In this document: in pieces, positions 8,884-63,862 of the stretch
Layout of the letters: every line of letters starts with the position of its first letter
Numbering within the stretch: the first letter of the stretch is position 1
Source: an uncultured Eubacteriales bacterium
Lineage (GTDB): Bacteria; Bacillota; Peptococcia; Peptococcales; SKKY01
Assembly: GCA_964642925.1 (NCBI GenBank)
Contig: CAZXPJ010000004.1
Coordinates: forward strand, 15,420-79,419
Length of the DNA: 64,000 nt
Reading direction: 5' to 3'
The notes under the pieces: generated by a model
Told to the model about the DNA's origin: nothing
The model's input: only the letters and a program-made list of their open reading frames with translations
Databases searched by the model: none
Position numbers and translations under genes: made by a program

Positions 8884-8918
8884 AAAAGCCTAGAATTGAA
8901 CTTTAATTCTAGGCTTTT
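8884..8918. terminator. bidirectional intrinsic terminator between convergent genes
   Basis: 14-bp stem AAAAGCCTAGAATT (8884-8897) / AATTCTAGGCTTTT (8905-8918). It overlaps the last codons of the minus-strand gene. Confidence 0.75.
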
Positions 8919-9418
8919 ATCATGAATCTCCATCCACAGTGCCAGCCTGGTCCTACTTTATCCGGGGGGCAACCAATACATTCTGTAATAATTCTTTCAT
9001 CTATTTCTTTAGCAAAATACCCATATTCAACTATACCAACGGGTTTACAAGGGAAAAAATCCATTCCCTTTCTTTCTCTAGCGTTTTGAACTCTACAAGA
9101 CTCCATATAAAACTCTAATGTATTAGTATCAATACGGATAGTTTTTTGTTCATTAATAAAGGCATACATTCTGTATTTCAAGCACTCTTCTAAATTATCT
9201 AGGCCTCCACCTTTGCTTAATCCTAAAAGAGACAAGATTCTTTTTGCTTCTAATTTGGTCTGTTTCTTCCAAGCTTCTACATCTATTTTTATTGCTTCTT
9301 TCATGCCATAATTTTTTTCTACTTCTTGGAACCATAAACCATCATGAGATAACCATCTTTTCGCAAAATCTATAGCAAGATTTTTCCACATTTCCTCAGG
9401 AACATAATCAAACTTCAT
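8909..9418 (-). CDS. conserved hypothetical protein (DUF6125 / ATC-hydrolase-like), Cys-rich C-terminus
   Basis: 169 aa. Contains WLSHDGLWFQ and a C-terminal CIGCPPD...WHCGW. The family assignment is from memory only. Confidence 0.4.
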   Translation of the reverse strand: MKFDYVPEEMWKNLAIDFAKRWLSHDGLWFQEVEKNYGMKEAIKIDVEAWKKQTKLEAKRILSLLGLSKGGGLDNLEECLKYRMYAFINEQKTIRIDTNTLEFYMESCRVQNARERKGMDFFPCKPVGIVEYGYFAKEIDERIITECIGCPPDKVGPGWHCGWRFMIKA

Positions 9419-24185: not shown

Positions 24186-24242
24186 AATAAAATTCCCCCA
24201 AAAGTTTAGCAATTCAATTTTATATTGATTTCACGGATAAAG

Positions 24243-39227: not shown

Positions 39228-40595
39228 TTATATCATCTTTTGAAGTTTTTTTATGTTTTTCCCATAGGGTGGATATCTTAAATCAAAATCCGGTTTAAAG
39301 CTTTTATTTAAAATGCTTTTTTTGTGGCTAAAAGTTTCAAAAGAATATTTCCCATGGTAACTTCCCATGCCACTATCGCCAACTCCCCCAAAAGGCATCT
39401 CGTCACTAGCTAAGTGCAGTATTGTATCGTTAATGCAACCACCACCAAAAGATATTTCTTGCAATATAAAGTCAATATTTTTATCACTTTTTGTAAAAAG
39501 ATACAAAGCTAGAGCTTTTGGGCGTTTTTTTATTTCTTCACTAATATGGGCTAAACTTTCAAATTCCATAATTGGTAAAAGAGGTCCAAATATTTCTTCT
39601 TTCATAATAGGATGATCCCAGTTTTTAATTTCCAGTAATGTAGGTTCCATATATTTTTCCTGTAAATCATAATTACCACCAAATAATACTTCCTCTTTGT
39701 TCAAAAAACCAACTAATCTTGATAAATGTTTTTCTGTGATAATTCTTCCATAATCTGGGCTTTTTTTAGGATACTCACCATAAAAATCCCGGATGCTTTT
39801 TATCATGTATTTAATAAGTTTTTTCTTTACACTTTTATGAACATAAAGATAATCAGGAGCAATACAAGTTTGCCCAGCATTAGTAAATTTACCCCAAACG
39901 ATTCTCTTTGCTGCTATTTTTAAATCACTGTCTTTACAAACTATAGTTGGGCTTTTGCCACCTAATTCTAGGGTTATAGGAGTGAGATGTTCCGCTGCTG
40001 CCTTCATAACAATTTTTCCAACCTGAGTACTTCCTGTGAAAAATATATAGTCAAATTTAAGTTCTAGTAAAAAGGAAGTTTCTGGAACTCCACCTTGTAT
40101 TATACTTACGTGTTCCTCTCTAAAAGTTTTTTTAATAATATTTTCAATTAGCTCAGAAGTATTAACAGAAAACTCGGAAGGTTTTACTAAAACAGTATTA
40201 CCTGCAGCAATAGCCCCAACAAGAGGCAAGAAGGTTAATTGGAAAGGGTAATTCCAAGGAGATATGATCAAAACATGCCCGTAGGGTTCAGAATAAATTT
40301 CTCCCTTACTTTTAAAAGTAATAAGAGGAGTACTTACTTTTTTTGTTTCCATTAACTTTTTAAGGTTTTTTATAAAGAAATCTATTTCACCAATAACCAT
40401 ATTATATTCTGTTAAAAAAGATTCTTCAGAAGACTTACCTAAATCTTTATAAAGGGCTTGATATATTTCTTCCTCATTTTTTTTTATTGATTTTTTTAAG
40501 CTCTTCAAACTTTCGATTCTAAATTTATATTCTTTTCCTTCTCCTTTGCTAGCAAAAAGTCTTTGTTTTTCCACTAGTTTTTTTATATGATCCAT
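39228..40595 (-). CDS. NAD(P)+ aldehyde dehydrogenase (class 3-like)
   Basis: ELGGKSP and GQTCIAPDY (catalytic Cys) motifs. 455 aa. Confidence 0.85.
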   Translation of the reverse strand: MDHIKKLVEKQRLFASKGEGKEYKFRIESLKSLKKSIKKNEEEIYQALYKDLGKSSEESFLTEYNMVIGEIDFFIKNLKKLMETKKVSTPLITFKSKGEIYSEPYGHVLIISPWNYPFQLTFLPLVGAIAAGNTVLVKPSEFSVNTSELIENIIKKTFREEHVSIIQGGVPETSFLLELKFDYIFFTGSTQVGKIVMKAAAEHLTPITLELGGKSPTIVCKDSDLKIAAKRIVWGKFTNAGQTCIAPDYLYVHKSVKKKLIKYMIKSIRDFYGEYPKKSPDYGRIITEKHLSRLVGFLNKEEVLFGGNYDLQEKYMEPTLLEIKNWDHPIMKEEIFGPLLPIMEFESLAHISEEIKKRPKALALYLFTKSDKNIDFILQEISFGGGCINDTILHLASDEMPFGGVGDSGMGSYHGKYSFETFSHKKSILNKSFKPDFDLRYPPYGKNIKKLQKMI

Positions 40596-41675: not shown

Positions 41676-42743
41676 TTATATTTCTATTAATTCATATTCC
41701 TTATTTCCTAGGCCTATCTCATCGCCATAGTTTATTTGTATCTCCCCTAAAGTTTCTTTTCTTAATGTTTTAAATTTATCTGCTCCACCCTTGTTTATTA
41801 AATCCAAACTAGCTTTATCAATGGCCACAGGATCTGTTGAAGCTAGAATACCAATATCCGGAACTATTGAAGCATCACTCCAGGGAACACAATCGCAATC
41901 AGGAGTAATATTTAACAAGAAATTTAAATAAATTACTTTCCCCTTCTTATTTTTTACTGCAGAATAAGCATATTCTACCATTTTTTCTGTAAAATCTAAT
42001 AACTCTTCTGACCAATTTAAAACTATAGCCTTAGTAGGGCAAACCGTCATACATTCACCACAACCCACACAGAGAAACTCATCAATTATGGCTTTTCTAT
42101 TAACTAGAGTTATAGCATCTTCAGGGCATACCCTGACACAGTCCCCGCAGCCTATACATAAAGAGTGATCTGCAACAGGACGGGTTGAATGCTGCTCTTT
42201 TTTTCCTTTAGGATTTGTACAACCCATAGCTAGATTTTTAATAGCACCACCAAATCCTGCCATGCCATGTCCCTTAAAATGGGATAATACAACCATACTA
42301 TCCGCTTCTTCAATAGTTCCAGCTATAAATGCTTTTTTAAAATGTTTTAGGTTAACTTCCACCTCTTTATAGTTTTCTCCCATTATTCCATCAGCAATCA
42401 TTATAGGAGCGTTAACAGATGCATAGCTAAAACCATGTTTTAAGGCTGTTTCAAGGTGATCTACCCCATTCTTTCTACTACCTAGGTAAAGTGTGTTAGT
42501 ATCAGTTAGGAAGGGTTTAGCACCAGTTTCCTTTAATAAATCCACTATTTGTCTAGCAAAGATGGGGTTAAGGAAAGTGTCATTACCCATTTCTCCAAAA
42601 TGTAGCTTCACAGCTACTAAGTCTCTTTTTTCTGCAAAATCTTCTGTTACTACTTTTTTATACAATTTTTTAATCTTAGATATTTTATTTTCACTATGTC
42701 TCCTTGCCTTAATACTAGAAAAATAAACCTTACTTTTCATCAT
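41676..42743 (-). CDS. DUF362 protein with inserted 2x[4Fe-4S] ferredoxin domain
   Basis: CIGCGDCVRVCP and CVGCGECMTVCP motifs within a DUF362-like frame. 355 aa. Confidence 0.7.
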   Translation of the reverse strand: MMKSKVYFSSIKARRHSENKISKIKKLYKKVVTEDFAEKRDLVAVKLHFGEMGNDTFLNPIFARQIVDLLKETGAKPFLTDTNTLYLGSRKNGVDHLETALKHGFSYASVNAPIMIADGIMGENYKEVEVNLKHFKKAFIAGTIEEADSMVVLSHFKGHGMAGFGGAIKNLAMGCTNPKGKKEQHSTRPVADHSLCIGCGDCVRVCPEDAITLVNRKAIIDEFLCVGCGECMTVCPTKAIVLNWSEELLDFTEKMVEYAYSAVKNKKGKVIYLNFLLNITPDCDCVPWSDASIVPDIGILASTDPVAIDKASLDLINKGGADKFKTLRKETLGEIQINYGDEIGLGNKEYELIEI

Positions 42744-42864
42744 ATTTTCTCCTTCTTTTTTGATTTATTAAATATCTTACCCAAAAACCGAAAGAAAAAA
42801 AACCCTCTGAAATTACCACCTTTGTTCATTTGTGTTTTCTTTGCTATTTTGAAACTAATAATAG

Positions 42865-50045: not shown

Positions 50046-50876
50046 TCAATATTTAAGTTTTTTATCTAGAATATTCTCTGCTTCCTCTATATTATCCGGT
50101 ATTTCAAGATTATGCCCTCTACTCTTTAATCTTTGAAATAGTTCGGATAAAATTGGGGGCTCAAGATTTGCCTCCTTTAGAATTTGAGTTTCCGCAAAAA
50201 CTTCCCTAGGTTTACCTTTTTTTACGATTTGCCCATTATTTAAAATATAAATCTTATCCGCAACTTCCGGTACTAGGTTAATATCATGAGTTGTCATAAC
50301 TATGGTAATACCAAAGTCCTTATTAAGAAAGTTAATTATTCCCAGCATTTCTTTTTTCGATTCAGGATCAAGAGATTCAAAGGGTTCATCTAAAATCAAT
50401 AATTCTGGAAACATTACAATAGCTCCTGCTAAAGCAACTTTTTTCTTTTGCCCTCCACTTAAGTAGTGAGGTATCTTTTCTAATAAATGTTCAATCTTTA
50501 AAATACGGGAAATCTTTAATACTTTTTCTCCTACTTCTTTTTCGCTTAATTTTGCGTTTCTCGGAACAAAAGCTATATCGTCATACACTCTAGGTCCTAT
50601 TATTTGTTCATCAACATTTTGGAAAACTACCCCAATTTTTTTACGGATATTCTTAAATTCTTTAACTGGATTTAATCCCATTACTTCTACGCTTCCTTCT
50701 ATTGGAGCTAAAAGACCTAAAATATGGGCAAGTAAAGTAGTTTTACCAGCTCCATTAGGTCCAAGGATTACAATTCTTTCTCCTTTTAGAACATCAAAAT
50801 CCAAACCACATATTTTAACCTCTGTTTTATCAGGATAGATATGTTTTAAGCACTTTACTTTTATTATAGATTCCAT
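50046..50876 (-). CDS. cbiO: ECF transporter ATPase (CbiO/NikO type)
   Basis: Walker A GPNGAGKTT and signature LSGGQKKK. Overlaps the T-component gene by 13 nt. Confidence 0.85.
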   Translation of the reverse strand: MESIIKVKCLKHIYPDKTEVKICGLDFDVLKGERIVILGPNGAGKTTLLAHILGLLAPIEGSVEVMGLNPVKEFKNIRKKIGVVFQNVDEQIIGPRVYDDIAFVPRNAKLSEKEVGEKVLKISRILKIEHLLEKIPHYLSGGQKKKVALAGAIVMFPELLILDEPFESLDPESKKEMLGIINFLNKDFGITIVMTTHDINLVPEVADKIYILNNGQIVKKGKPREVFAETQILKEANLEPPILSELFQRLKSRGHNLEIPDNIEEAENILDKKLKY

Positions 50877-51577
50877 GGTATTAACACCCCAATTATTAAA
50901 ATAATCCCTATGACAATTAATATATAATCCTTCTTACCCTTAATAAGAATTATATTTCCTGATGGTAATTTACCATCATAACCCCTTAATGAATAAATTT
51001 TATACATCCTCTCGCTGGCTTCAAAAGAATGGATTATTAAAATGCCAATTATCCCAGCAATGTTTTTTATATTTTTGATAAAGTTAAATTGATGATATCC
51101 ACCTTTTAATTTTATACTTTTTAGAATATTTTCCAACTTTCCTAAGAGGATAAAAAATGACCGATAAGTAAAAAAGAGAATATCCACAATAACAGAGGGG
51201 AATATAAGATTTAAAATAGAAAATACTTCTATATAAGGAGTGGTTAATATTAACCAAATCATAGAAAATGCTGATCCTATTGCTTTTAGCATAATAATTA
51301 ATCCTTGGTTAGGAGTATCTTTTATTATAATAAGGGCAAAAAAAGTACTGAAAAATGCTGGATATAACAAAAGTTTTAGGGCTGTTTTAAAGGGGATTGC
51401 AGAGATTATTGATATAATTATGATTACTAATATCAAGAATACTATTTTTTCTAATTCCCGGGAAAACAGAAAGCCAAAGAGTAAAAGGGCTGCAAAAATC
51501 ATTTTTGCAGCTGGTCCACATTTATGAATTTTTGTTGTTCCATTTATAGAAACATTATCAATATGAGCTAAATTCAT
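50864..51577 (-). CDS. cbiQ: ECF transporter T component (CbiQ/NikQ type)
   Basis: 237-aa polytopic protein lying between the M and O components. Confidence 0.75.
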   Translation of the reverse strand: MNLAHIDNVSINGTTKIHKCGPAAKMIFAALLLFGFLFSRELEKIVFLILVIIIISIISAIPFKTALKLLLYPAFFSTFFALIIIKDTPNQGLIIMLKAIGSAFSMIWLILTTPYIEVFSILNLIFPSVIVDILFFTYRSFFILLGKLENILKSIKLKGGYHQFNFIKNIKNIAGIIGILIIHSFEASERMYKIYSLRGYDGKLPSGNIILIKGKKDYILIVIGIILIIGVLIPWNL

Positions 51578-51589
51578 AATACACCATCT

Positions 51590-52219
51590 CTATTCCGAAA
51601 TAATATCAGGTCTTACCTTTTGAAAATATCTTATAATGAAAGCTGTAGCTACTGATTCAATAAATATACCTATAAGAACTATAGAAATTAATACACTAGC
51701 TTCACCAGAATGAAGATGAAAGGGCATTTCCCCCGATGTACCTAAGGCTGTAATAAATAACAAAATCATTGTAGAAACAGAAGCAGTTAAAGCTAGGCCC
51801 ACAGAAATAAAAGTTCTAGCAAATATACCTATTTTATATAGTACTTTTCTAAATAAAAAAGAAGAAATTAAAACTTCAGAACCAATTATTAAGGTGTTTA
51901 AACCAATTATAGTAATACCACCATGACCAACTAGAGCTAGTATTAGATTAACAGAGAATACTGCTAAAAACCCAAGACTAGGACCTAAAAGAATAGATAC
52001 TAAAGATGCAAGACTAAGATGAAGAGGTAAAATACCCAAGGGGATAGACATGGCTAAAAGCATTATAGCTGCTGCTATTCCTGTAAAAGGTATCTTTTTT
52101 TTAATTTCCTCAAGATCCATTTGTTTTGTAAGATAGAACAAGATAATAAAAGTTAGAATATATCCTGATACCCATATAAATGGTGATAAGACACCGTCGG
52201 GAATATGTAAATGACTCAT
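51590..52219 (-). CDS. cbiM: metal-specific ECF S component (CbiM/NikM type)
   Basis: 209 aa. The N-terminus MSHLHIPDGVL contains the HIPDG signature of CbiM/NikM. AAGGAGGA lies 6 nt before the ATG. No CbiN/NikN gene is present. Confidence 0.75.
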   Translation of the reverse strand: MSHLHIPDGVLSPFIWVSGYILTFIILFYLTKQMDLEEIKKKIPFTGIAAAIMLLAMSIPLGILPLHLSLASLVSILLGPSLGFLAVFSVNLILALVGHGGITIIGLNTLIIGSEVLISSFLFRKVLYKIGIFARTFISVGLALTASVSTMILLFITALGTSGEMPFHLHSGEASVLISIVLIGIFIESVATAFIIRYFQKVRPDIISE

Positions 52220-52293
52220 TTTAAATCCTCCTTAAATGCGAATAGTTTGCATTTATCTTCATTAAGATTATCTTTTTCTCCTCTATTTGTCAA

Positions 52294-52345
52294 TAAAAAA
52301 GGCTTTATCCATAATCAATCTCTTGAAAGAGGGATAAAACCTTTT
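52294..52345 (-). terminator. probable terminator after the LarA-family gene, immediately before the cbiM promoter
   Basis: 12-bp stem AAGGCTTTATCC / GGATAAAACCTT with one mismatch. On the minus strand it is followed by TTTTTTATTGACA, so the T-run runs into a TTGACA -35 box at 52288-52293. Confidence 0.5.
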
Positions 52346-52352
52346 ATATTTC

Positions 52353-53603
52353 CTATATTACCATTGGTATAGTGGAACCAGCTTTTGGCATTGAATAAAC
52401 TAGGCCCCCACTAATCTTTTCCTTGGCCATTTCTAATGCTTGGGTTAGATCTTTAGCTTTTTTAACCTGTAGAGTTTTCGCTTCTTCTTCAGTAATTCCA
52501 TCACTAACAATTATCACTTCTGCTTTACTTAAACTTTGAGCCCAAAGGAAAGCTTTATGCGCACCTACTCTAAAAGGTAATTTAGCAAATTCCTCTAATA
52601 CTTTTTCAGGAGTATCCCCTAAATTCATAGTTTCCACAAAAAGATCTGATCCTATTCCCTCTACACACTCTGCACAAAGAATAATAGTTCCACCTTTTTT
52701 TACCGCCAAGGCTGAATGTAAAAGTGCTTTTTGAGCTTGATACATATTGATATCCTTAGGATATCCACCAGCACTAGCAATTACTACATCAGCTTCTTGA
52801 TTAATACTTACTTGAAGAGCTGATTTAGCAGCTTCAACACCAACTTTATGAGCTAAAAAAACATCTCCAAAAACTGCTTTTACAACTTCTTTTTTACTAT
52901 TTAATACCACATTAAAAATAAAATCTAGTTCTACTATCCTACCGATTTCATCAATGTCAGCTCTTAATGGGTTACCTTCTATCACACCAAGGCTTGCCCC
53001 GGGCTTAGTCAACATGGCATGATTAGTATTAACTAAATCTACTCCTGCCATTCCAATACTTACTCCTTTTACACCACCACTAAATCCAGCAAATTGATGA
53101 GGATCAATTACCCCAAGAGAAATTTTTAAATCTGATTCAAAATATTCTTTATTAATGTGAATTGGTGTTCCTCTAGATGTTGTTCCTAAATCGATTAACT
53201 TCGAAGGATCAAAAGCATCATGGGATACTACTTTAAATCTTTTGCTAACTTCCTCACCTAATATTTCAGGCATTTCAGATTCACCACAAACTCTGTGAAG
53301 CCCTGTTCCAATCATTATTGTAATCTGCTCATCTTTTATTCCCATTGCATTCAACTTTTCCACTAAAGGTGGAATTAATAATTCATTAGGAACGGGTCTG
53401 GTCGCATCACTAGTTACGATACAAACTTTCCCTTTGCTTTCAAAACCTTCTAAAGATTTTCCAATAGGCTCATTTAGTGCTCGTAGGATTTCTTCTTCAT
53501 TAGTAAAAGGAAGTTTTTCTTCAGAAATATTCAATTTTTTAAAGGGAAAATCTACTTCTTTTTCAATATAACCTTTACCATAGGGAATGCTTAATAAAGC
53601 CAT
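52353..53603 (-). CDS. LarA-family (DUF2088) nickel-pincer-cofactor-dependent racemase/epimerase homologue
   Basis: 416 aa. SDATRPVPN, GTGLHR, DPHQFAGFSGGVKG (Lys aligned with the cofactor-tethering Lys of LarA) and a downstream NHAM His. GAAGGAGGAG lies 7 nt before the ATG. Confidence 0.75.
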   Translation of the reverse strand: MALLSIPYGKGYIEKEVDFPFKKLNISEEKLPFTNEEEILRALNEPIGKSLEGFESKGKVCIVTSDATRPVPNELLIPPLVEKLNAMGIKDEQITIMIGTGLHRVCGESEMPEILGEEVSKRFKVVSHDAFDPSKLIDLGTTSRGTPIHINKEYFESDLKISLGVIDPHQFAGFSGGVKGVSIGMAGVDLVNTNHAMLTKPGASLGVIEGNPLRADIDEIGRIVELDFIFNVVLNSKKEVVKAVFGDVFLAHKVGVEAAKSALQVSINQEADVVIASAGGYPKDINMYQAQKALLHSALAVKKGGTIILCAECVEGIGSDLFVETMNLGDTPEKVLEEFAKLPFRVGAHKAFLWAQSLSKAEVIIVSDGITEEEAKTLQVKKAKDLTQALEMAKEKISGGLVYSMPKAGSTIPMVI

Positions 53604-53620
53604 TAATTAACTCCTCCTTC

Positions 53621-55723
53621 TTAAATAAATTCAGCTTTTCTTTTTTCTAAAAAAGCATTAATGCCTTCTGCAAAATTACCATCGTTAGCTAATTCTACTT
53701 GATATTCATATTCAAGGTCAAGAAAATCAGATAGTTCTGGATAATTAATTTTATTTACTAAATCTTTTGTTTTTCTTAAAGATTCTCCTGGTTTTGCAGC
53801 AAGTTTTAAAGCGAAGTTTTTAGTTTCTGTAGCTAATTCTTCCTCTTTAGCTAAAATATTTATTACCCCAAGATCATAAAGTTTTGTAGCTAAAATAACC
53901 TCTCCCAACATAGCTAATTCCATAGTTTTAGAGGGATTTAAAGCTTTACTTAAAAAGTAGGTTCCCCCCATATCAGGAATTAGACCAATATTTACAAAGG
54001 CTTGGACATACTTTGCTTTTTCTGAGGATACAATGAAATCGCAGCATAATGCTAAGTTGAAGCCTGCCCCTGCTGCTGCTCCATGAACACAAGCTATTAC
54101 TGGTTTCCCTATATCTCTTATTCTCAAAGCTAAAATGTTAACTTTTTTAAGTAATGGTTTAAAAAAATCATTTATATCTTTCTCTAAATAGGTTTTCATA
54201 CCTTGGATATCTCCTCCAGCAGAAAAACCTCTACCTAAACCTCTGATAATAATTACTTTACAATTCTCATCCTTTTCACATTCATCTAGAGCATCAATCA
54301 TCTCTTCTAGAATCATTTCGTCAAAGGCGTTAAGATTCTCTGGTGAATTCATTCCTATATAAGTAATTTTCTCTTCTTTTTCAATTACTATTTTTGTGTA
54401 TTCCATTTTTATTTCTCTCCTTTTTATATTATCTAATATTTTATCTTTGGCCATACCTTTAATTTGCATTCTAATAGCTTCATCTAAAATTCTTTTGAAT
54501 TCTAGAGACTCCTCTAGACCTAATTCTAAAAGTTCCCTTCCCGTAAGCAAGGGTTTGAAATTTTTAGCTTTATTTATTATGTTCTTAGATTCTACTTCTT
54601 TTTCAAAATCTATTTTAAATTTAGTAAAATTCATCCAATAATTTGTATGTAAAGTAAGATGTTTATTTTCTTTCCTTATTAATTTTAGGAAGGTTTCTTC
54701 ATAGTTAGCTTTTCCTTTAACAAATTCTATAATTGCATTTAAAGATTTTAGGCTCGTCAAAACAAAATCAATATCATTTTTGTTTTTTGTAAAGGTTTTT
54801 AGGATTCTTTTAGTTTTTTCTATATAATCTTGAACATTCCATTCATCTAAGAAAAGAATAAATAAAAATGTCCATTTTTCAGATATTTTCATTTCTTCAT
54901 TAAAATAATCAATTATTCCATTTACATCTTTCTGCTTTTCCAAATTAGAATTTAGCAATTGGCTAAATTCTTCATGTCTTTTTAAAAAAACCTTTGCTTC
55001 TTGTAGAAAAAGTATACCTGAGATAATGTTTTTACCACTAAAAAGTTTTTCCATTTCCCAGCTGATTCTTTCTAGGGATAAGCTACTTATGTCCATTCTT
55101 TTACATAATTCCATGGTCTCAAAATCCACTGTAAAATCTAGCCTGGAAACAAATTGTCCTATCCTATAAACTCTTAAGGGATCTTCAATAAAAGTAGTGG
55201 AATTAACCACACGGATAACTTTTTTTTCTATATCCGAAAGAGCACCAAAATTATCTATTATTAGTTCTTTATTAAAGGAATACATTAGAGTATTCATCGT
55301 AAGGTCTCTTCTTTGCTGGGCCTCTTTAAAACTTAAAAAAGGATTAAGAGATATACTATAGTCCTTCCTAGTGATTCCCATCTTATTTTCTTTTCTGGGG
55401 AAGGAAAAATCATAAGGCTTATTTTCCATTTTTATAACACCAAAGTTTTTTCCTATTTCATTTATTTTGCCAAATTCACCTAATATTACCTTTATCCTAT
55501 CTATAAACTCTAATAGATAAACTTCTTTCTCTTTTTTTACCAAAAAATTGTATTTTTTTTTGCTCTTGGAATTAGCATAAATCTCAAAATCAAATTCTTT
55601 AGGACTTATACCTAAAATTAGGTCTCTTAAGCTTCCTCCTACTAAAAAGAGTTCTCCTTCAGCCTCTTTGATTCTTTCAGCAATTAGTAAAATCTCTTGA
55701 GAGAAAAGCTTATTGCTAATCAT
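53621..55723 (-). CDS. in-frame fusion: CCA-type (PolyA_pol family) nucleotidyltransferase (about 438 aa) + complete enoyl-CoA hydratase/crotonase (261 aa)
   Basis: The N-terminal part has GGSLRDLILG..EFDFE, RRDLTMNTLMY and EDPLRVYR. The C-terminal part has RGFSAGGDI and HGAAAGAGFNLAL crotonase motifs. A single 700-codon ORF. The junction carries AAAAGGAGAG-N8-ATG (ATG at 54404-54406). Confidence 0.75.
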   Translation of the reverse strand: MISNKLFSQEILLIAERIKEAEGELFLVGGSLRDLILGISPKEFDFEIYANSKSKKKYNFLVKKEKEVYLLEFIDRIKVILGEFGKINEIGKNFGVIKMENKPYDFSFPRKENKMGITRKDYSISLNPFLSFKEAQQRRDLTMNTLMYSFNKELIIDNFGALSDIEKKVIRVVNSTTFIEDPLRVYRIGQFVSRLDFTVDFETMELCKRMDISSLSLERISWEMEKLFSGKNIISGILFLQEAKVFLKRHEEFSQLLNSNLEKQKDVNGIIDYFNEEMKISEKWTFLFILFLDEWNVQDYIEKTKRILKTFTKNKNDIDFVLTSLKSLNAIIEFVKGKANYEETFLKLIRKENKHLTLHTNYWMNFTKFKIDFEKEVESKNIINKAKNFKPLLTGRELLELGLEESLEFKRILDEAIRMQIKGMAKDKILDNIKRREIKMEYTKIVIEKEEKITYIGMNSPENLNAFDEMILEEMIDALDECEKDENCKVIIIRGLGRGFSAGGDIQGMKTYLEKDINDFFKPLLKKVNILALRIRDIGKPVIACVHGAAAGAGFNLALCCDFIVSSEKAKYVQAFVNIGLIPDMGGTYFLSKALNPSKTMELAMLGEVILATKLYDLGVINILAKEEELATETKNFALKLAAKPGESLRKTKDLVNKINYPELSDFLDLEYEYQVELANDGNFAEGINAFLEKRKAEFI

Positions 55724-56694
55724 CTTTCTCTGCCTTTTCCTGAATCTGTAACATTTATTAATGATGGAGGAAATGCTTTAAAGATTTTCTGGTTCTTTAA
55801 ATATTCTTGATTAAATCTAATTGCCCAAGAATAAAGGACTGAAAGAGGTACTGAAAATGGTACTTTACTATTCCTATAATTCTCCAGATTGTCTAAGAAA
55901 AAAGCTTTTTCTTCATTATTTAACTCATCAGAAAAATAACCAAAGATATGAAACAACATATTTATTTTGGTTTTATAAGATGGGTTATTATTAAAGGCTT
56001 TTAAAAGATTTTTTTTATAATCTTTAAATATTTGTTCCACATTTTTTTTGTCATGATTTGCAATTATCCCACCTAAAATTTTTAATTGACTTTGATTATA
56101 GGTCATTAGCAAATACTTATTTCTCGAATGGAAATCTATTAAGTCCTTTATTTTCTTATTTGGTGCTAATCTTTGAAATTCGGCAATTACAAAGATTTTT
56201 GTCAAAAAATTTTCTCTTATAGTGAAATCACCTAATCTTGCCTCATCCTCTATAGGCAAGTTCTTATGATAGTTGAGTACTTTAGCACCGAAAATTCCTT
56301 TACCACTTTTACCAAGGGACATTACTTTTCCATGGGATTTATAGACCTTAACTTCTTTAATTCCGCAAGATGGAGATTTGCTTTTTAAAATTGCCCCATC
56401 TATTCCATCCGTATTTGCTTGCAAAAATTCTTGAGAAAAAGTAATCATTTTATCTGTAAAATCTTCCCCAGTATTTGATTTTACAAGACGTCTATCATCC
56501 TCGGATCCTATCAGTCGCAAACTTTCCCGTGGGCTTGGTAAACCAACAGCCATTTCGGGACAGACTGTTATGAAGTCTACATATTTTTTAAGATCTTCAA
56601 CGATCTTCGAAGATATCATTGATCCATCATAGCGGCAGTGATCGAATTCAATACATTTACTAATTAAAATTTTAGGTCTAGCAAAATTATTCAT
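55720..56694 (-). CDS. ybgA: DUF523 (TudS-like [4Fe-4S] desulfidase) + DUF1722 fusion, YbgA/RudS type
   Basis: 324 aa. Cys-containing segments SKCIEFDHC, VCPEM and SPSCG lie in the N-terminal half, and the C-terminal half is helical. Its stop overlaps the downstream start in an ATGA. Confidence 0.75.
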   Translation of the reverse strand: MNNFARPKILISKCIEFDHCRYDGSMISSKIVEDLKKYVDFITVCPEMAVGLPSPRESLRLIGSEDDRRLVKSNTGEDFTDKMITFSQEFLQANTDGIDGAILKSKSPSCGIKEVKVYKSHGKVMSLGKSGKGIFGAKVLNYHKNLPIEDEARLGDFTIRENFLTKIFVIAEFQRLAPNKKIKDLIDFHSRNKYLLMTYNQSQLKILGGIIANHDKKNVEQIFKDYKKNLLKAFNNNPSYKTKINMLFHIFGYFSDELNNEEKAFFLDNLENYRNSKVPFSVPLSVLYSWAIRFNQEYLKNQKIFKAFPPSLINVTDSGKGRER

Positions 56695-56706
56695 AATATC
56701 ATCCTT

Positions 56707-57990
56707 TTATATTTTATATAGTTCCAATGCTTTTAATCTCTGCTCCTTATGGTCCACAATAGGATAAGGATAATCCTTGCCAATAATAACCCCAACTTTT
56801 TCTTGCTCTATATCTGGCATTTTCCATGGTTCGTGAATATATTTAATTTGTATACTACTTAACTCCGGAACATATTTCTTTATGTAATTTCCCTCTGGGT
56901 CGAATTTTTGCGACTGGGTTATAGGATTAAAGATTCTAAAATAAGGCTGAGGGTCTGCTCCAGTAGAGGCAGACCATTGCCAACCTCCATTATTAAGTAT
57001 AACATCTCCATCTAACAAGTGTTCCATAAAAAACTCTTCTCCCTTCTTCCAGTCAATGAGAAGATCTTTTGTGAGAAAGGATGCTGTTAGCATTCTTAGG
57101 CGATTATGCATTATTCCTTCTGTTAATAATTGTCTGATTCCTGCATCTACAAAAGGGTAACCCGTTTTACCTTCCTTCCATTTTTTAAAATATTCTTCAT
57201 TGTTTTCCCAATAAATATCATTATATTTTTCCTTAAAAGAATTATTTAAAACATGGGGAAAGTAAAAATATAAATGATAATAAAAGTCTCTCCAGGCTAA
57301 TTGCCGAATAAAAGCTTCCCTATTTAAATCAAGATCTTTTATTTTTAAAGAATAATTATAAAGGCTAAGGGGAGAAAGCATTCCTAAGCTTAAATACTTA
57401 GAGAACTTTGAGCTTCCATCTTTCCCTGGAAAATCCCTGTCATCAATATAATTTTTAATCTTTTGGTCAAAAAAACCCCTCATAATTTTGATATTTTTTT
57501 TCTCATCTTTAATATCTTTATTTTTATTATACAAAACCTTCTGCCATTTTCTATAGAAAGGAGTAAACACCACATAAGGAGAACCATCATCTTTAAGTAC
57601 CTCCCCAGGAATTGTTAAAAGATAATCCTTATCAATAATATTCAAGGTTTCTTTTAGATTCTTAAAAAGATAATCTTCCTCTTCCTTTTCCCAGGGAAGA
57701 TAAAGTTTTTGTATATAAACTTCACCTATAAATTTAGGAGGGATAATAGAATTTGCCTTATCAATAATCCCACCCTGAATTATCTTCATTTTTCCCTTCT
57801 TAGCTTCAATATCTCTTTTTAACTCAGCTAAGATTTTCTTTAGATTCTTTTTATAGAAGTCCCCTCTTTTTTCTTTGTCTAGATTTTCTTCATTCCAAAA
57901 GTAATAAAATGTAGCGTCTTCTATGAAATCAAAATGAATTCTTAGATCCTTACGGAGAATATAAATATTTTTTTTCTTGTTTTCCACCAT
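56707..57990 (-). CDS. phr: deoxyribodipyrimidine photolyase / cryptochrome family protein
   Basis: FAD-domain motifs WRDFYYHL, TGYPFVDAGIRQL and NNGGWQWSASTGADPQPYFRIFNP. 427 aa, with a short divergent N-terminal domain. Confidence 0.85.
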   Translation of the reverse strand: MVENKKKNIYILRKDLRIHFDFIEDATFYYFWNEENLDKEKRGDFYKKNLKKILAELKRDIEAKKGKMKIIQGGIIDKANSIIPPKFIGEVYIQKLYLPWEKEEEDYLFKNLKETLNIIDKDYLLTIPGEVLKDDGSPYVVFTPFYRKWQKVLYNKNKDIKDEKKNIKIMRGFFDQKIKNYIDDRDFPGKDGSSKFSKYLSLGMLSPLSLYNYSLKIKDLDLNREAFIRQLAWRDFYYHLYFYFPHVLNNSFKEKYNDIYWENNEEYFKKWKEGKTGYPFVDAGIRQLLTEGIMHNRLRMLTASFLTKDLLIDWKKGEEFFMEHLLDGDVILNNGGWQWSASTGADPQPYFRIFNPITQSQKFDPEGNYIKKYVPELSSIQIKYIHEPWKMPDIEQEKVGVIIGKDYPYPIVDHKEQRLKALELYKI

Positions 57991-57993
57991 CTA

Positions 57994-60900
57994 TTATTCC
58001 TGCTTCTTTCTACTTTTTTCAAGATACATTCTTGCATCTGCTCTTTTAATCATTTTCTCTAAATTATCATTTATCTCCTCTCCAGAATTGGCAATACCAA
58101 AACTAAGAGTAATTGGAGCGTCTAGCCTTCTACTTATAATTTCCAAGTCTATTTTAATTCTATTTATTATAGAGGCTGGGGATTTATCTCCTTTTTCTCT
58201 TAAAACAATAAGAAACTCATCTCCACCATAGCGAATAAAGACATGGTCTTTTCTAATGTTTTTTTGAATAATTTCAGCCACTATTTTTATTGCCTCGTCT
58301 CCTTGAATATGCCCGTATCTATCATTGATATCTTTTAAATTATCTAGATCTAGAAAAATTAAACTTATATCTTCTTTGGTCATAATTCCATCCTCAAAGA
58401 AAATTTCTAAGAACTCCATACCTGCAGCTCTAGTCATTGCTCCTGTCATCGGATCTATCTTTGCTAGATATCTTAATCTTTTTTCATAAGCCTTTTTTTG
58501 AGTAATATCTTCTATTGTTGCGATAAACTTTTCTATTTCTCTATTATTAAATATAGGGTTGATTTTAACCCCCTGCCAGTAAGTTTCTTGGTTCTTTTTC
58601 TTGTTGTGAAGCTCCCCTTGCCATTCTTTCCCTTGGAGAATTGTTTCCCATAAATTTCTAAAAACTTCATTAGGAATTAATCCAGAACTTAAAAAGCTAG
58701 GGTTTTTACCAAGGACTTCTTCAGCTTGATAACCGCTCATATTAGTAAATTTTTTATTCACATATTCAATATTTCCATCGATATCCGTTACCATAATACT
58801 ATTAGGAACATTATCAAGAAACTCCAGGTAACCTAAGTTTTCAATCATTTCTTTATTAGTTACTTGGGTGATTATTATAACTATATCTCCTTTTAGACTA
58901 TCAGCAAAAGCTCCTTGATCTACTTTTATAATGGTATCCAAGAAATTACTGTCTTTTTTTATGATAGGTAGTTTAAAGTCTAATATAAAATTAATATCAT
59001 TTTTAACAAAATCCTTAAATTCCTTTGCTACTCTAGGGGTAGTTAGACTGTTAAAATTTTTTCCAAAGATATCTTTCTTTTCCCATTTAAAATATTCTTG
59101 GAACTTACTGTTAAATCCCTTAATATGAAAATTTTTATCTAATATAATTATAGGAAGTGGTAAATTATAAAATTTTTCTACTTCATCTATAAACTCTTCT
59201 ATACCTGTTTTTTTAATTTCAATTTTTTGGGCAAAAAACTTTTCAAAGTCTCCGAGTTTTATAGGTTTAGAGAATAGAAATCCTTGGACATATTTACAGC
59301 CTAATTGGTTTAGAAAATTATATTGTTTTAAATTTTCTACTCCTTCTGCTACTACATCAATTTCCAAATCTTTAGCAAGGGCTATTATATTTTTTACTAG
59401 GTATTCATCTGTTTTGTTTTCTAACAAACCACCTATAAAGGATCTGTCAATTTTAATTTCAGCAAAATTAACATGTTTCAATTTAGTCATAGAAGAACTC
59501 CCCGTACCAAAATCATCCATACTAAATCTAATTCCTATTTTATTTAATTTTTTTATTACTTCCTGTAAGTGTTCCCCTTCTTCAAAGATATAATTTTCTG
59601 TAACTTCCATCATGATTTTTTCTGCTTCTATTTCATATTTTGCTAATTTGTCTTTTACTATCTCAGGGAAATTATATTGTAGCAGCTGTTTACCTGAAAT
59701 ATTTATAGAGATAGGTATATTAATGTCTTTATATTCCCATCTCTTCTGAATCTTGCAAGCCTCATCTAAAACCCATTCCCCAATTTTTAAGATTAAATTG
59801 CTTTTTTCAGCGGTAGGGATAAATTCTATGGGTGTTATTAAGCCATGCTCTTTATGATTCCACCTTATAAGGGCTTCAGCTTTTATAATCTTTTCGGTAT
59901 TTAAATCTAAGATAGGTTGAAGATAGAGCTCAAATTCTCCTCTTTCCAGGGATTCATATATTTCTGTTTCCAACTCATATTCTTTTTTAATTTCAGCTTC
60001 AAGATCAACTGAAAAAGATACTAGATTTACTTCCCCATTGAGCTTAGCTTTGTTTTTAGCAAGGGCAGCTTTTCTAATAAGCGTTTCTTTAGAGGAGCCA
60101 TCCTCTGGATAAGAACTTATTCCAATATCAAGCTCTAGCCTATGCACAATATCATTAATTATAATTGGTTTTTTTAAAATTTTCATAAGATTCTTGGAAA
60201 ACTCAACAGCTTCTTCTTTACTTTTACCTTGATGAATTATTATAAATTCATCATCCTTAAATCTTGTTAAAATAATATCTTCTGATTGGCCTAATTTCAG
60301 GATATAAAGATTTATTAGTTTTGCTACCTGAAACAACATTCTATCTCCTGCTTCATATCCATATATTTCATTTATAACTCTAAATTTTTTTATATCTATA
60401 TAGATAAGTGAGAATCTTTCTTCCTTATTTACAAGGCTTTCTGTTTTCATTAGAAAGTAATTGTAATTATAAATGTCCGTCAAGCTATCTTTATAGGCTA
60501 GATCATTAAGTTTTCTCTCCATAACTATTTTATCTGTAACATCTACTCCCAGTAAAACAATTACATTTTCCTTTTTTCCTTCTAATAAAAAATAAAATTT
60601 TTCAAAATTTCTTATCTTATCTTTATTGTCCACAAAATAATTGATTTCTCTAAAGTAACCTTCCTTTTCAATTGTTTTTTTCTTTTCTATAAATTTCTCA
60701 TACTGTTCTGTAGTAAAAAAGTTACTAACTTTTTTTCCAATCCATTCTTTACCCTTTAGATTGTCTTTTGTGAATTTATTTACAAACTTACATTGTCCTT
60801 TTAAGTCCATAATCATAATTATTCCAGGAAAGTTATCCACAAGATTACTAAATAATCCTATTTTCCCTAAAATTGAATCATAAAAAGAATCCGACGTGAT

Positions 60901-61092
60901 TTTATCGGATTCACTATGTATTTCGAAAAGATTTACTAAAGGGGCAAGGGTTAATAAATCTCTTCTACTGTTATTTACTTCTGAGCATAGTTCTAGGTCA
61001 ATTATGGAAAAGTTTTTCTTATGAAGGCTTTCTTTAAAAAAAGAATCAATATCTTTAATTAAAGTTTTTATCTTTTGATTTAAATTATCCAT
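57994..61092 (-). CDS. multidomain c-di-GMP signalling protein: PAS - degenerate GGDEF - EAL - PAS-like - PAS - GGDEF
   Basis: The first GGDEF site reads KDDEF. The EAL motif is EALIRW. A PAS domain carries GKNPSFLSSG...WQGE. The terminal domain reads RYGGDEF. ATG at 61092 is preferred (GGTGA 5 nt upstream), whereas the track ORF starts at TTG 61104. Confidence 0.85.
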   Translation of the reverse strand: MDNLNQKIKTLIKDIDSFFKESLHKKNFSIIDLELCSEVNNSRRDLLTLAPLVNLFEIHSESDKITSDSFYDSILGKIGLFSNLVDNFPGIIMIMDLKGQCKFVNKFTKDNLKGKEWIGKKVSNFFTTEQYEKFIEKKKTIEKEGYFREINYFVDNKDKIRNFEKFYFLLEGKKENVIVLLGVDVTDKIVMERKLNDLAYKDSLTDIYNYNYFLMKTESLVNKEERFSLIYIDIKKFRVINEIYGYEAGDRMLFQVAKLINLYILKLGQSEDIILTRFKDDEFIIIHQGKSKEEAVEFSKNLMKILKKPIIINDIVHRLELDIGISSYPEDGSSKETLIRKAALAKNKAKLNGEVNLVSFSVDLEAEIKKEYELETEIYESLERGEFELYLQPILDLNTEKIIKAEALIRWNHKEHGLITPIEFIPTAEKSNLILKIGEWVLDEACKIQKRWEYKDINIPISINISGKQLLQYNFPEIVKDKLAKYEIEAEKIMMEVTENYIFEEGEHLQEVIKKLNKIGIRFSMDDFGTGSSSMTKLKHVNFAEIKIDRSFIGGLLENKTDEYLVKNIIALAKDLEIDVVAEGVENLKQYNFLNQLGCKYVQGFLFSKPIKLGDFEKFFAQKIEIKKTGIEEFIDEVEKFYNLPLPIIILDKNFHIKGFNSKFQEYFKWEKKDIFGKNFNSLTTPRVAKEFKDFVKNDINFILDFKLPIIKKDSNFLDTIIKVDQGAFADSLKGDIVIIITQVTNKEMIENLGYLEFLDNVPNSIMVTDIDGNIEYVNKKFTNMSGYQAEEVLGKNPSFLSSGLIPNEVFRNLWETILQGKEWQGELHNKKKNQETYWQGVKINPIFNNREIEKFIATIEDITQKKAYEKRLRYLAKIDPMTGAMTRAAGMEFLEIFFEDGIMTKEDISLIFLDLDNLKDINDRYGHIQGDEAIKIVAEIIQKNIRKDHVFIRYGGDEFLIVLREKGDKSPASIINRIKIDLEIISRRLDAPITLSFGIANSGEEINDNLEKMIKRADARMYLEKSRKKQE

Positions 61093-61122
61093 AATTATCA
61101 CCAACCCTATTAAAATTAAGTT

Positions 61123-61470
61123 TTAAACTAAGCCCATAAATTCTTTTATATCCATAATGTTTTTATTATCTAATTCAAAAGTATATCTGGCTCCATCCTC
61201 CAGGAGAAGAACTATTTGTTTTAAATCAAGAATCTTATAAAGATCTTCAGCTAATTCAGGATTGTAAGCAGCTATTTGGGGAAAACCAAAAGCAAAAATT
61301 TCATCCTTTCCTTCTTTTTTTAAAATAATATGCAATTCTAATTCGTCCTCTGTTATCTCAGTATTAAATTCCAAAAGACCATCTCCTATTATATCTGGAG
61401 TCAGATCCTTAGAATATACCTGGAAATCCGGTTTTTCCGGAACATAAAAAAGATTGTATCTTTTTTTCAT
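61123..61470 (-). CDS. 115-aa acidic hypothetical protein
   Basis: Good SD (TGGAGGTGA) before the ATG. I recognise no motif. It is the first gene of the tightly packed string. Confidence 0.55.
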   Translation of the reverse strand: MKKRYNLFYVPEKPDFQVYSKDLTPDIIGDGLLEFNTEITEDELELHIILKKEGKDEIFAFGFPQIAAYNPELAEDLYKILDLKQIVLLLEDGARYTFELDNKNIMDIKEFMGLV

Positions 61471-61500
61471 AATATATCACCTCCAATAGTTCTTACACAA

Positions 61501-61529
61501 ATTTATTGTTCAATAAACCTATTTTGCAA
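61501..61529 (-). promoter_or_regulatory. candidate promoter of the 61470-52353 gene string
   Basis: Minus strand reads TTGCAA (61524-61529), a 17-nt spacer, then ATAAAT (61501-61506). The -10 element is imperfect. Confidence 0.35.
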
Positions 61530-61606: not shown

Positions 61607-62464
61607 ATGTCGATTAGAGTAACAGGTAAAGAAGCTTTAAATGCTTTTGCTAGCATTGCATATCTCATTAATCAAACCACATCATCAGATATTGGAATTT
61701 CAATTATTGAAGGAGATACTTATCTTGAGTATGTACCCGCAGATAAATTAGATTTAGGAAGAAAGCCAGGAGATAAGCTTTCTGATAAAACTGTGGGTTA
61801 TAGGTGTATGGCTCAAAATCGAAGGATTGTGGAAGAGGTAACAAAGGAAAAATCAGCTTATGGAAAGGCTTACGTTGCCAATGCATTCCCTGTTTTAGAT
61901 GATAATCAAAAGGTTGTTGGGTGTATTGTCACAACAGAAACAAATGATGTGCAAGAATTTTTTAGGGATAAATCTTCTATTTTAAGAGAATCTTCTAATG
62001 AGGTTGCTCAAGCAATTCAAAACTTAGCTATGCAAGCAGAAAACTTAGCTGTTTCCGGAAAAAATCTTGATTCGCTCTCCCAAGAAACTCAAAAAAAGGT
62101 CCAAGAAACAGATAAAATTATTACTTTTATTAATGATATTGCTAAAAAAACTAACTTACTTGGCCTAAATGCTTCTATTGAAGCTTCTAGAGTTGGAGAA
62201 ATCGGTAGAGGCTTTGGAGTAGTTGCAGAAGAAATACGAAAACTTGCTAATAATAGTTCAGAATCCGTTAAACATATTGAGACTGTTTTAAAAATTATGA
62301 TTACGGCAATGAACCAAATAAAAGAACAAAGCAGTTCTATTGACAGGGCAACTCAAGAACAAGTAGCAATTACAGAAGAGATTTCTGCATCTATGGAAGA
62401 AATAGCTGCTATGGCAAATGAAATCCAAGATTTCACTGAAAATATAAGACATGATACAAAATAA
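61607..62464 (+). CDS. soluble short methyl-accepting-chemotaxis-type signalling protein
   Basis: 285 aa with no TM segment. It has the conserved MCP hairpin tip [31 protein letters not shown] and an N-terminal domain of about 120 aa of unknown type. Confidence 0.75.
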
Positions 62465-62528: not shown

Positions 62529-63716
62529 ATGGTTAATTCAAGCATTACTCTTCCCCTACCCATATTTATATCCTTTGTTTTTTCTCTTTCAATATTTTTT
62601 TATTTATTTACTTTCAAAGAAAAAAAAGCTCCCTTAAAAATTTACAATCACCTTTTTCTAACTTTTGTATTTTCAGGATTTTTTTTAATTTTCTCTGATA
62701 ATATTCTTCCTACAAACTTTTTACTATCCTCTTCTTTCATTATATTTCTGGTTTTTTTAATATTTACATATAGAAAATATGGAGATAACCAAGATTTACT
62801 ATATTTTATTTTAATTATTTTTTATACTTTAAATATCACTTTCTATTATTTGCTAATAAAACATAACTCCATCTTTATTAATTTCTCTTCAGGCAACATC
62901 ACTTATTATCTAATCACCCTAGTTCTAGTATTCTTATTAGTTATTCATAAAAAAACAAAAACAGAAAATAATATAATTTTCTTTAGTTATGTTTTACTAT
63001 TAACTTTTTATTTAATAAATATTTTTTATTCTGCTCTCTTAAATCCTTGGATAAATGTTGTTTTATTAATTTCTTTTTTCTCTCTTCATCTAATAAACTC
63101 ATACCAGCAGGCTTATTCTCCTTTAATTAGAAGGATTAAAAAATTGAAAATACAGACAAATAGGCAAACAGCAGAATTGCCAGAACATATCCGACAACAA
63201 TTTCAAATAATGGAACATAACAAAGCCAAACTTATGGACATGGCATATACGGACAAAATGACTGGTGTTTTTAACAAAGATAAAATAACTTCATTAATTA
63301 AAGATATGATAAGAGATTCAAGAGTTAATGTTTTTTCTATTATGATGTTTGATATTGATGACTTTAAAAAAATAAATGATAACTTAGGACATCTAGTTGG
63401 TGACGAATCTTTAATTGACATGGCAAAACTAGGAATGGAATCTATAAGAAAAAATGACTATATTGGAAGATATGGTGGAGATGAGTTTCTTATTATACTT
63501 TCTGGGCTTGATCCCTATGAAACAAAAGTTATTGCAGAAAGATTCCGCACAAAAATCGCCAGCAGGTCTAAGCCTAATTTTACGGTTTCTATTGGGGTGG
63601 CTTCTTATCCAGAAGATGGGAAAACTTTTAAAGAACTCATAGAAGCAGCAGATAAGGCTTTATATCTTTCTAAAAAAAGAGGTAAAAATAGGGTTTCTCA
63701 TTTAAAGCTATATTGA
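62529..63716 (+). CDS. membrane-anchored diguanylate cyclase (about 6 TM + GGDEF)
   Basis: RYGGDEF with an upstream RKND I-site-like RxxD. The hydrophobic N-terminal half spans about 190 aa. Confidence 0.85.
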   Translation: MVNSSITLPLPIFISFVFSLSIFFYLFTFKEKKAPLKIYNHLFLTFVFSGFFLIFSDNILPTNFLLSSSFIIFLVFLIFTYRKYGDNQDLLYFILIIFYTLNITFYYLLIKHNSIFINFSSGNITYYLITLVLVFLLVIHKKTKTENNIIFFSYVLLLTFYLINIFYSALLNPWINVVLLISFFSLHLINSYQQAYSPLIRRIKKLKIQTNRQTAELPEHIRQQFQIMEHNKAKLMDMAYTDKMTGVFNKDKITSLIKDMIRDSRVNVFSIMMFDIDDFKKINDNLGHLVGDESLIDMAKLGMESIRKNDYIGRYGGDEFLIILSGLDPYETKVIAERFRTKIASRSKPNFTVSIGVASYPEDGKTFKELIEAADKALYLSKKRGKNRVSHLKLY

Positions 63717-63761: not shown

Positions 63762-63862
63762 GCTACTTATCAAGAGCGGTAGAGGGACTGGCCCTATGAA
63801 ACCCGGCAACCTGCAGTTATGCAAGGTGCTAACTCCAGAGGTATTATGCCAAAGATGAGATC
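63762..63862 (+). promoter_or_regulatory. SAM-I (S-box) riboswitch aptamer
   Basis: CTTATCAAGAGCGGTAGAGGGACTGGCCCTATGAAACCCGGCAACC...AAGGTGCTAACTCCAG...AAAGATGAG matches the S-box core. The P1 stem pairs CTTATC with GATGAG. Confidence 0.9.

Follow-up and report, generated by a model that had tools for sequence, protein, structure and literature searches.

The best-described counterpart of the genes examined here is the pairing of a photolyase gene, phr, with rudS. RudS combines a TudS/DUF523 domain with DUF1722; it lowers the 4-thiouridine (s4U) content of tRNA and shortens the growth delay caused by ultraviolet A (UVA) light, three cysteines (Cys12, Cys44 and Cys110 of RudS_ST) ligate its [4Fe-4S] cluster, and its genes frequently share light-responsive operons with photolyase genes (Jamontas et al., NAR 2024, PMC11417400). 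We studied such a pair in a 64,000-nucleotide (nt) stretch of DNA (hereafter, the window; G+C content about 31%) from an uncultured, apparently anaerobic Clostridia lineage. Here, the pair belongs to a string of six minus-strand genes (52353–61470) that also includes p115, a PAS-GGDEF-EAL gene for cyclic di-GMP (c-di-GMP) turnover, a fusion of a nucleotidyltransferase (NTase) to a crotonase-fold (ECH) protein, and a larA homologue. A sequence-only reading of the string had taken it for a possible light- or UVA-response module, which raises a question: do these closely packed genes serve one function, or several?

The locus resembles the published pair in several respects. The rudS gene stands directly beside a class I-type photolyase gene on the same strand, its product has both RudS domains and the three cluster cysteines, and the expected outcome would be that tRNA loses s4U8, its near-UV chromophore, while DNA is photorepaired. 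Since the association of phr and rudS with light is already on record (PMC11417400), that link is not new here. The locus nonetheless differs from the described ones. In E. coli K-12, ybgA and phr do adjoin, with a 4-nt overlap, as the sequence-only reading had stated; YbgA, though, consists of DUF1722 alone (PMC11417400) and is not the two-domain fusion, and the gene order is ybgA then phr, whereas here phr precedes rudS. A LitR/MerR-B12 light-sensing regulator is also missing, for the genes flanking our string encode no MerR or B12-binding domain, and the pair is joined in its block by a third gene, the PAS-GGDEF-EAL one. Finally, the host belongs to a lineage of uncultured, apparently anaerobic Clostridia, and the nearest RudS relatives outside its clade have no photolyase neighbor.

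The string is best read as one long transcription unit made of separate neighboring functional blocks, not as a single pathway; we give this reading a probability of about 0.6. The evidence that carries it comes from about ten related lineages, all members of a single clade of uncultured Clostridia, whose gene contexts show three arrangements. In type A (L008, L086/L087, L090 and L091/L092), a divergent gene for a methyl-accepting chemotaxis protein (MCP) is followed by p115-NTase-ECH-larA-cbiM-cbiQ-cbiO and a flavodiiron protein gene (fdp); the GGDEF/EAL gene, phr and rudS are all missing. Type B (the window and L005, and L003) has the six-gene string and then cbiMQO-fdp. Type C (L001/L006, L007, L088/L089, L093 and L094/L095) runs p115-GGDEF/EAL-phr-rudS-NTase-ECH and continues with response regulator, histidine kinase and pst genes and phoU, a block of roughly 7 kb that directly follows ECH, where type B has larA. 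In L001, the sole type-C locus that reaches far enough, larA was found some 7 kb further on; the pho block can sit between ECH and larA. The contiguous string that the sequence-only reading described does recur in L003, but it is not general in the clade: only that lineage and the window species have it.

These arrangements break the string at particular places. The GGDEF/EAL gene, phr and rudS are present or absent as one block across the lineages examined, and phr adjoins rudS on the same strand in all type-B and type-C relatives. The NTase and ECH genes are neighbors in every lineage. LarA travels with the nickel transporter: in every type-A and type-B locus, cbiMQO is the next set of genes downstream of larA. 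The wider region is collinear in all these relatives, with PALP, metQIN-like, GGDEF and MCP genes upstream and fdp, HTH-cupin, pot-like ABC and thrC genes downstream; for the most part, adjacency within the clade is therefore a matter of shared descent rather than of functional selection. On this comparison, the NTase, the crotonase and LarA appear to be neighbors by descent with partners of their own, and they are not supported as members of the phr-rudS module. Several of the assemblies have peculiarities: L002 (ENA ctg9808) carries a mirror-image palindrome of rudS-NTase-ECH that is probably an assembly artefact; the long-read metagenome-assembled genome (MAG) OZ245787 (L001) and L093 contain many frame-split genes, GGDEF/EAL and larA included; and in L001 a fragment of an rve-type transposase lies inside the GGDEF/EAL gene.

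The anatomy of the string agrees with the earlier description. All six open reading frames (ORFs) were recovered on the minus strand at the positions claimed for them, and the junctions read as reported. The 115-residue p115 gene (61123–61470) ends in TAA, 30 nt before the ATG (61092) of the signaling gene (57994–61092). The ORF list begins the latter at an upstream TTG (61104); an independent gene call in L005 takes the ATG, which yields 1032 residues. The next junction, with phr (56707–57990, 427 residues), is TAA-TAG-ATG. A spacer of 12 nt containing AAGGATGA separates phr from rudS (55720–56694), which in turn shares an ATGA overlap with the fusion gene. The latter consists of the NTase part (54407–55723, residues 1–439) and the ECH part (53621–54406, 261 residues), and 17 nt containing GAAGGAGGAG precede larA (52353–53603). 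The transporter genes cbiM-cbiQ-cbiO, recognized by the Pfam families CbiM, CbiQ and ABC_tran, follow on the same strand at 50046–52219. Pfam also bore out the domain calls: GGDEF-EAL-PAS-GGDEF, photolyase, DUF523 plus DUF1722, a PolyA_pol head plus ECH_1, and Lar_N plus LarA_C. PADLOC returned no match for any of the six proteins, and a reading of the string as a defense system was rejected on that ground. It is plausible that the six genes are co-transcribed in this strain.

Under the patchwork reading, transcription would start at a conserved promoter upstream of p115 that does not look like a sigma-70 site and would run to a conserved terminator that follows larA, passing through blocks that need not be coupled in function. 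The small, clade-specific p115 protein would constitute the first. The second would be a near-UV damage pair with a signaling partner: a class I photolyase of the cyclobutane pyrimidine dimer (CPD) type that repairs DNA, a RudS-type desulfidase that strips photosensitive s4U8 from tRNA, and the c-di-GMP turnover protein. A CCA-adding-type NTase and a PaaG/FabM-like crotonase-fold isomerase, joined in one 700-residue frame in this species alone, would make up the third block, and the fourth would be a LarAH5-type 2-hydroxyacid (malate) racemase dependent on the nickel-pincer nucleotide (NPN) and served by the cbiMQO nickel transporter downstream.

The second block is of a known kind. The RudS-type protein matches PF04463 (2-thiour_desulf; 131 bits, residues 9–151) and PF08349 (DUF1722; 128 bits, residues 193–309), and its Cys14, Cys45 and Cys110 correspond to the cluster ligands of RudS_ST and are invariant in 22 homologues; it is a predicted tRNA s4U desulfidase. 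The photolyase is a class I CPD-photolyase-like protein with a short, divergent N-terminal domain. FAD_binding_7 (PF03441) scores 300 bits, the DNA_photolyase N-domain only 44 bits, and the NCBIfam model NF007955 328 bits, under its equivalog cut-off of 506; the protein has 427 residues against 471 in E. coli. Its best match in the Protein Data Bank (PDB) is nevertheless E. coli photolyase (1DNP, 2.6e-79), and the electron-transfer tryptophan motifs WKEGKTGYP, IDWKKGE and NGGWQW align with that structure.

In the signaling protein, Pfam recognizes EAL (241 bits), GGDEF (196 bits) and PAS_9 (82 bits). The first GGDEF motif is degenerate (KDDEF), the C-terminal second one is intact, and EALIR is present, for an order of PAS, degenerate GGDEF, EAL, PAS and GGDEF. 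A light-sensing role for the PAS domain at residues 761–869 was rejected: this segment reads GKNPSFLSSG and does not have the cysteine of the LOV motif NCRFL. Since the GGDEF/EAL gene comes and goes with phr-rudS, it is plausible that the three genes, the signaling gene as a probable member, form a near-UV unit. The window holds further c-di-GMP genes, namely two encoding GGDEF proteins and one encoding an HD_5 (HD-GYP-like) protein, at 23172–24212 (minus), 33098–34084 (plus) and 62529–63716 (plus).

Outside the clade, the company kept by rudS is different. We scanned 80 metagenomic RudS loci at 43–52% identity, 63 of them with usable flanks, and none had phr, a PolyA_pol NTase or larA within 3 kb. 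The RudS loci of Clostridium cylindrosporum and Petrocella likewise had none of these neighbor genes. One of the 80 (L161, 3314–5222) is alone in having a GGDEF gene directly upstream, at 26 nt on the same strand, and another has an unrelated ECH gene on the opposite strand.

The sequence-only reading had found no hairpin followed by a T-run within the string. This was mistaken, for the 5' end of the GGDEF/EAL ORF harbors a conserved nucleic-acid element (60880–60936, minus strand): a terminator-like hairpin, GAATCCGAT-N8-GTCGGATTC, with TTTTT, at 60912–60880. Both a terminator scan and a separate scan detected this 9-bp, GC-cored stem and its T-tract, and all six orthologues compared have GAATCCG-N8-11-CGGATTC followed by TTTTT. 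In a four-way codon alignment, every one of the 11 codons within codons 53–70 that encode an identical residue is also identical as a codon, compared with 27% gene-wide, and this is the sole such peak in the gene. Pairing is preserved in 97.9% of cells, six of the eight pairs are invariant, and the 3' arm accommodates two amino acid replacements (S to P and D to G) without loss of pairing. Compensatory double changes were not observed; the pairs are either invariant or altered on one side, and support for the hairpin thus derives from the synonymous-site conservation. We take it for an RNA-level element, perhaps an attenuator or the 3' end of a short p115 transcript.

The proposed boundaries of the unit are conserved as well. 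Upstream of p115, 22 nt from its ATG, lies a promoter-like motif, GTTTAT-N14-GTGTAA(G) (61493–61518, minus strand). In eight of eight aligned loci, representing all three arrangements, the hexamers and the 14-nt spacing of GGTTTA(T/C)-N14-(T)GTGTAAG are kept while the spacer sequence varies. The consensus for Bacillus sigma-B promoters is GTTTAA-N12-15-GGGTAT, and the motif, which is similar to it, looks like a promoter for an alternative sigma factor. A sigma-54 site was considered and rejected: the spacing from GG to GC is 7 nt, not 10, and the window has no GC element. As a regulon marker the motif was uninformative, for GTTTWW-N12-15-GKGTAW matches the window twice where 1.1 matches would be expected, no significant excess. 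The other match lies 34 nt upstream of the ATG of a DUF362 protein with two [4Fe-4S] motifs (41676–42803, minus strand).

At the other end, the structure that the sequence-only reading had placed at 52294–52345 proved to be a strong hairpin followed by a T-run. This intrinsic-terminator-like element (52290–52350, minus strand) has a folding energy of -21.4 kcal/mol (z = -5.4), and none of 200 shuffled sequences was as stable. A hairpin with a T-run occurs at the same place after larA in all six loci compared (the window, L003, L008, L086, L090 and L091), although the stem sequences differ. What follows it differs between arrangements. In the window (52220–52352) and L003 only, the larA-cbiM spacer measures 132–133 nt; about 75 nt remain after the terminator hairpin, and they carry a promoter-like TTGACA-N17-TAATCT site for cbiMQO (52265–52293, minus strand, in the window) and a second small hairpin. 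In the type-A loci L008, L086, L090 and L091, by contrast, the spacer is 56–61 nt long and consists mostly of the hairpin, which abuts the cbiM ribosome-binding site; expression of cbiMQO there would thus need read-through. Among known RNA families, Rfam at gathering thresholds gave only a SAM riboswitch in the region (RF00162, 77.5 bits, 63764–63861, plus strand), which is outside the string. On the riboswitch side, relatives L086 and L094 have metN/metI/metQ-like ABC genes and a PALP enzyme gene.

The larA homologue of the string belongs to the LarAH5 (Mar1-type) family and is a putative malate racemase gene. Its product exceeds the curated LarAH5 cut-off (NF052595, 508 bits against 462), its closest structure is Mar2 (6D6Z, 1.2e-87), and its active-site and NPN-binding residues (D/R, HR, H...K, H and K) align with those of Mar2 (PMC7583248). 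The substrate loop departs from it: H-Q-F...G-V-K in the window, H-Y-K...G-H-K in Mar2. With malate, the characterized LarAH5 member, Mar1, shows a KM of 55 mM (PMC7583248), and the physiological substrate of the homologue is therefore uncertain. A CbiMQO-type Ni/Co transporter of the energy-coupling factor (ECF) class immediately downstream would be the functional partner of the racemase. The lar locus of Lactobacillus plantarum reportedly contains a nickel transporter, larR(MN)QO, and the two loci are alike in this respect; they are unlike in that none of the ORFs of at least 150 residues in the 64-kb window is larB, larC or larE, although such genes could be located in another part of the genome.

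The NTase half of the fusion is most likely an ordinary class II CCA-adding-type tRNA nucleotidyltransferase. Pfam assigns the PolyA_pol head to residues 25–171 (62 bits), and the motifs GGSLRD...D45-F-E47, R138-R139-D140 and E180-D181-P-L-R184 are invariant in 53 homologues. An AlphaFold2 (AF2) model with a predicted local distance difference test (pLDDT) score of 93.8 gave full-length Foldseek matches to the CCA-adding enzymes 3H37, 1MIV and 6Q52 (TM 0.64–0.76 over 440–455 aligned columns), and on this model the protein has the full CCA-adding-enzyme fold. Compared with the enzymes of B. stearothermophilus (1MIV) and T. maritima (3H37), it shares the head-neck-body-tail architecture and GGxxRD, RRD and EDxxR; it differs in a D-x-E instead of a D-x-D motif A, a head-domain insertion of about 20 residues, the lack of an HD domain and, in this species, a C-terminus fused to a crotonase. 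Related NTases encoded by genomes of Campylobacterota and Fibrobacterota share the D-x-E variant, and their sources name several of these proteins CCA tRNA nucleotidyltransferases. The protein falls under all NCBIfam CCA and PcnB cut-offs (best, NF009814 with 91.7 bits against 290). Neither the window nor any of 12 related loci contains a tRNA gene that would reveal whether CCA is genome-encoded.

The crotonase half (residues 448–699 of the fusion) matches ECH_1 over its whole length (187 bits), and its best NCBIfam matches are FabM, PaaG and oxepin-CoA hydrolase, all under cut-off. By eye, it has N and F at what we take to be the positions of the two glutamates of rat ECH (E144 and E164), and the aspartate of an IPD motif is presumably equivalent to that of PaaG. 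These features suggest an isomerase of the PaaG/FabM type rather than a canonical hydratase, although the protein scores below every curated cut-off and its surroundings contain no paa or fab genes. Fusions of ECH homologues to CoA-transferases occur elsewhere, which points toward ordinary acyl-CoA metabolism. A second crotonase gene, of the ECH_2 type (358 bits), adjoins an aldehyde dehydrogenase gene at 38183–40595 (minus strand); this acyl-CoA catabolic pair is unrelated to the fusion.

The remaining protein, p115, has no match in Pfam, NCBIfam or PADLOC. Its 21 homologue clusters are all at least 63% identical and all lie within the clade, where p115 is the first gene of the string in every case. 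Its AF2 model is confident (pLDDT 92.6), and Foldseek found no significant match to it in the PDB. A gene for a soluble MCP (61607–62464, plus strand) is divergent from p115.

The NTase-crotonase fusion is not characteristic of the protein family: it is genuine, but it is recent, confined to this species and traceable to a single base. A search with the 700-residue protein retrieved one fused cluster; the remaining relatives, at 72% to 40% identity, have 430–444 residues and PolyA_pol only, and in them a gene of its own, next in line after an ATGA or GTGA overlap or a short gap, encodes the crotonase. In the closest of these (P0002, 72% identity), the NTase terminates 17 nt inside ECH in a different frame. 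Alignment of the junction (54404–54421, minus strand) with six unfused relatives shows one extra base in the window, in an A-run just before the ECH ATG (54406–54404); owing to this base, the ATG shares the NTase frame and the overlapping stop is lost. The Shine-Dalgarno-like AGGAG (54421–54417) upstream of the ATG is retained, and free ECH may thus still be made. When 1.84 billion protein-cluster representatives were searched exhaustively with HMMER, no other protein matching both halves was among the 150 best matches, with the limit that a fusion can hide under an unfused representative, as this one does; the long matches examined were NTase plus HD or CoA-transferase plus ECH proteins.

Could the 700-residue frame be a sequencing or assembly error, or a pseudogene? 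An A-run is a typical site of indel errors, and some related long-read MAGs (L001 and L093) abound in frame-split genes. The fused cluster, however, comprises five 700-residue variants that differ by one or two residues and come from NCBI, ENA and Logan assemblies, short-read ones included, on at least 12 contigs; the window protein is identical to P0140. L005 and the window disagree at 7 of 11310 bases but share the junction, and both halves are full-length and intact. The presence of five allelic variants in independent assemblies means that the fusion is real and fixed in this species, and we have rejected an artefact as very improbable indeed.

If the fusion is real, does it, or the packing of the genes, betray a common function? 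The proposal of the sequence-only reading was that all six genes constitute one light or UVA module for DNA repair, tRNA de-thiolation, tRNA 3'-end repair or tagging and a reset of c-di-GMP state, with the crotonase and LarA as accessories. Its tie between RudS, photolyase and light stands, being published (PMC11417400), and the signaling gene comes and goes with that pair; RudS and a CCA-adding enzyme would both act on tRNA, and the junctions are operon-like, with the rudS-NTase ATGA overlap kept in all type-B and type-C loci. The rest of the proposal fails to fit the relatives. Type-A lineages retain p115-NTase-ECH-LarA without the other three genes, type C puts the two-component/pst/phoU block after ECH, LarA pairs with a nickel transporter, and the distant RudS loci lack phr, NTase and larA alike within 3 kb; nor is there a LOV cysteine in the PAS domain or a LitR-type regulator nearby. 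We therefore consider a single module unlikely. A second possibility is that p115-NTase-ECH, perhaps with LarA, forms a new functional unit, in which a specialized, non-housekeeping NTase, acting together with the crotonase-fold enzyme and p115 as its small partner, might make or handle a nucleotide- or CoA-linked cofactor or substrate for a LarA-type enzyme and the fusion would be a Rosetta-stone signal. In favor of it, the three genes are contiguous with overlapping stop and start codons in all type-A loci (p115 overlaps the NTase by 8 nt), the NTase-ECH adjacency is invariant, the fusion is fixed, the NTase evolves unusually fast and falls under its family cut-offs, and larB, larC and larE are absent from the window. 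Yet the NTase model superposes on CCA-adding enzymes over its full length, tRNA-binding body and tail included, with motifs A, B and D kept. The collinearity of the region makes adjacency little informative, type C has a different block where type B has LarA, the CoA-transferase fusions of ECH homologues point toward ordinary acyl-CoA metabolism, and the fusion came about through a 1-nt change at an overlap that spares the ECH ribosome-binding site and ATG. A specialized unit of this sort seems to us quite unlikely.

Several observations do weigh against the patchwork reading, which we nonetheless prefer. The conserved rudS-NTase overlap, together with NTase-ECH overlaps of 4–11 nt in several loci, implies that translation is coupled, and function could lie behind it. 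The housekeeping role of the NTase is putative, and this is the fastest-evolving gene of the region (42–60% identity, compared with 73–90% for its neighbors in the same pairs of genomes; 50–78% in the head and neck, 24–63% in the body and tail), which is odd for a housekeeping enzyme. Being fixed in the species, the fusion is at least tolerated. Finally, the conserved hairpin within the GGDEF/EAL gene means that the unit may not be transcribed uniformly. These points can be joined into a more speculative proposal: rudS and the CCA-type NTase, overlapping wherever both occur, might form a near-UV tRNA repair path in which de-thiolation comes first and the 3' end is then repaired or tagged with CCACCA, with p115 and the crotonase as new partners of the NTase and the fusion revealing a physical complex; separately, the hairpin and T-tract might act as an attenuator that depends on translation and controls all that lies downstream of p115. 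We regard this combination as unlikely.

Elsewhere in the window, a gene for a bacterial archaeo-eukaryotic release-factor-like protein (baeRF family 7, 129 bits; 7779–8864, plus strand) lies beside one for a DUF6125 protein (8909–9418, minus strand).

If the patchwork reading is true, the locus cautions against inferring function from tight same-strand packing in a single genome: relatives divide the string into the already described phr-rudS light-damage pair and its c-di-GMP partner, the CCA-type enzyme and the crotonase beside it, and the nickel racemase along with the transporter. What is new would then reside in the c-di-GMP partner of phr-rudS, in a unique, fixed fusion with a traceable one-base origin, in the constrained intragenic hairpin and in p115, a protein of interest for a confidently predicted fold with no Foldseek match to solved structures and for its translational coupling to the NTase in some lineages. 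The PAS-GGDEF-EAL protein that travels with phr-rudS hints that, in this clade, the handling of near-UV damage is tied to c-di-GMP state.

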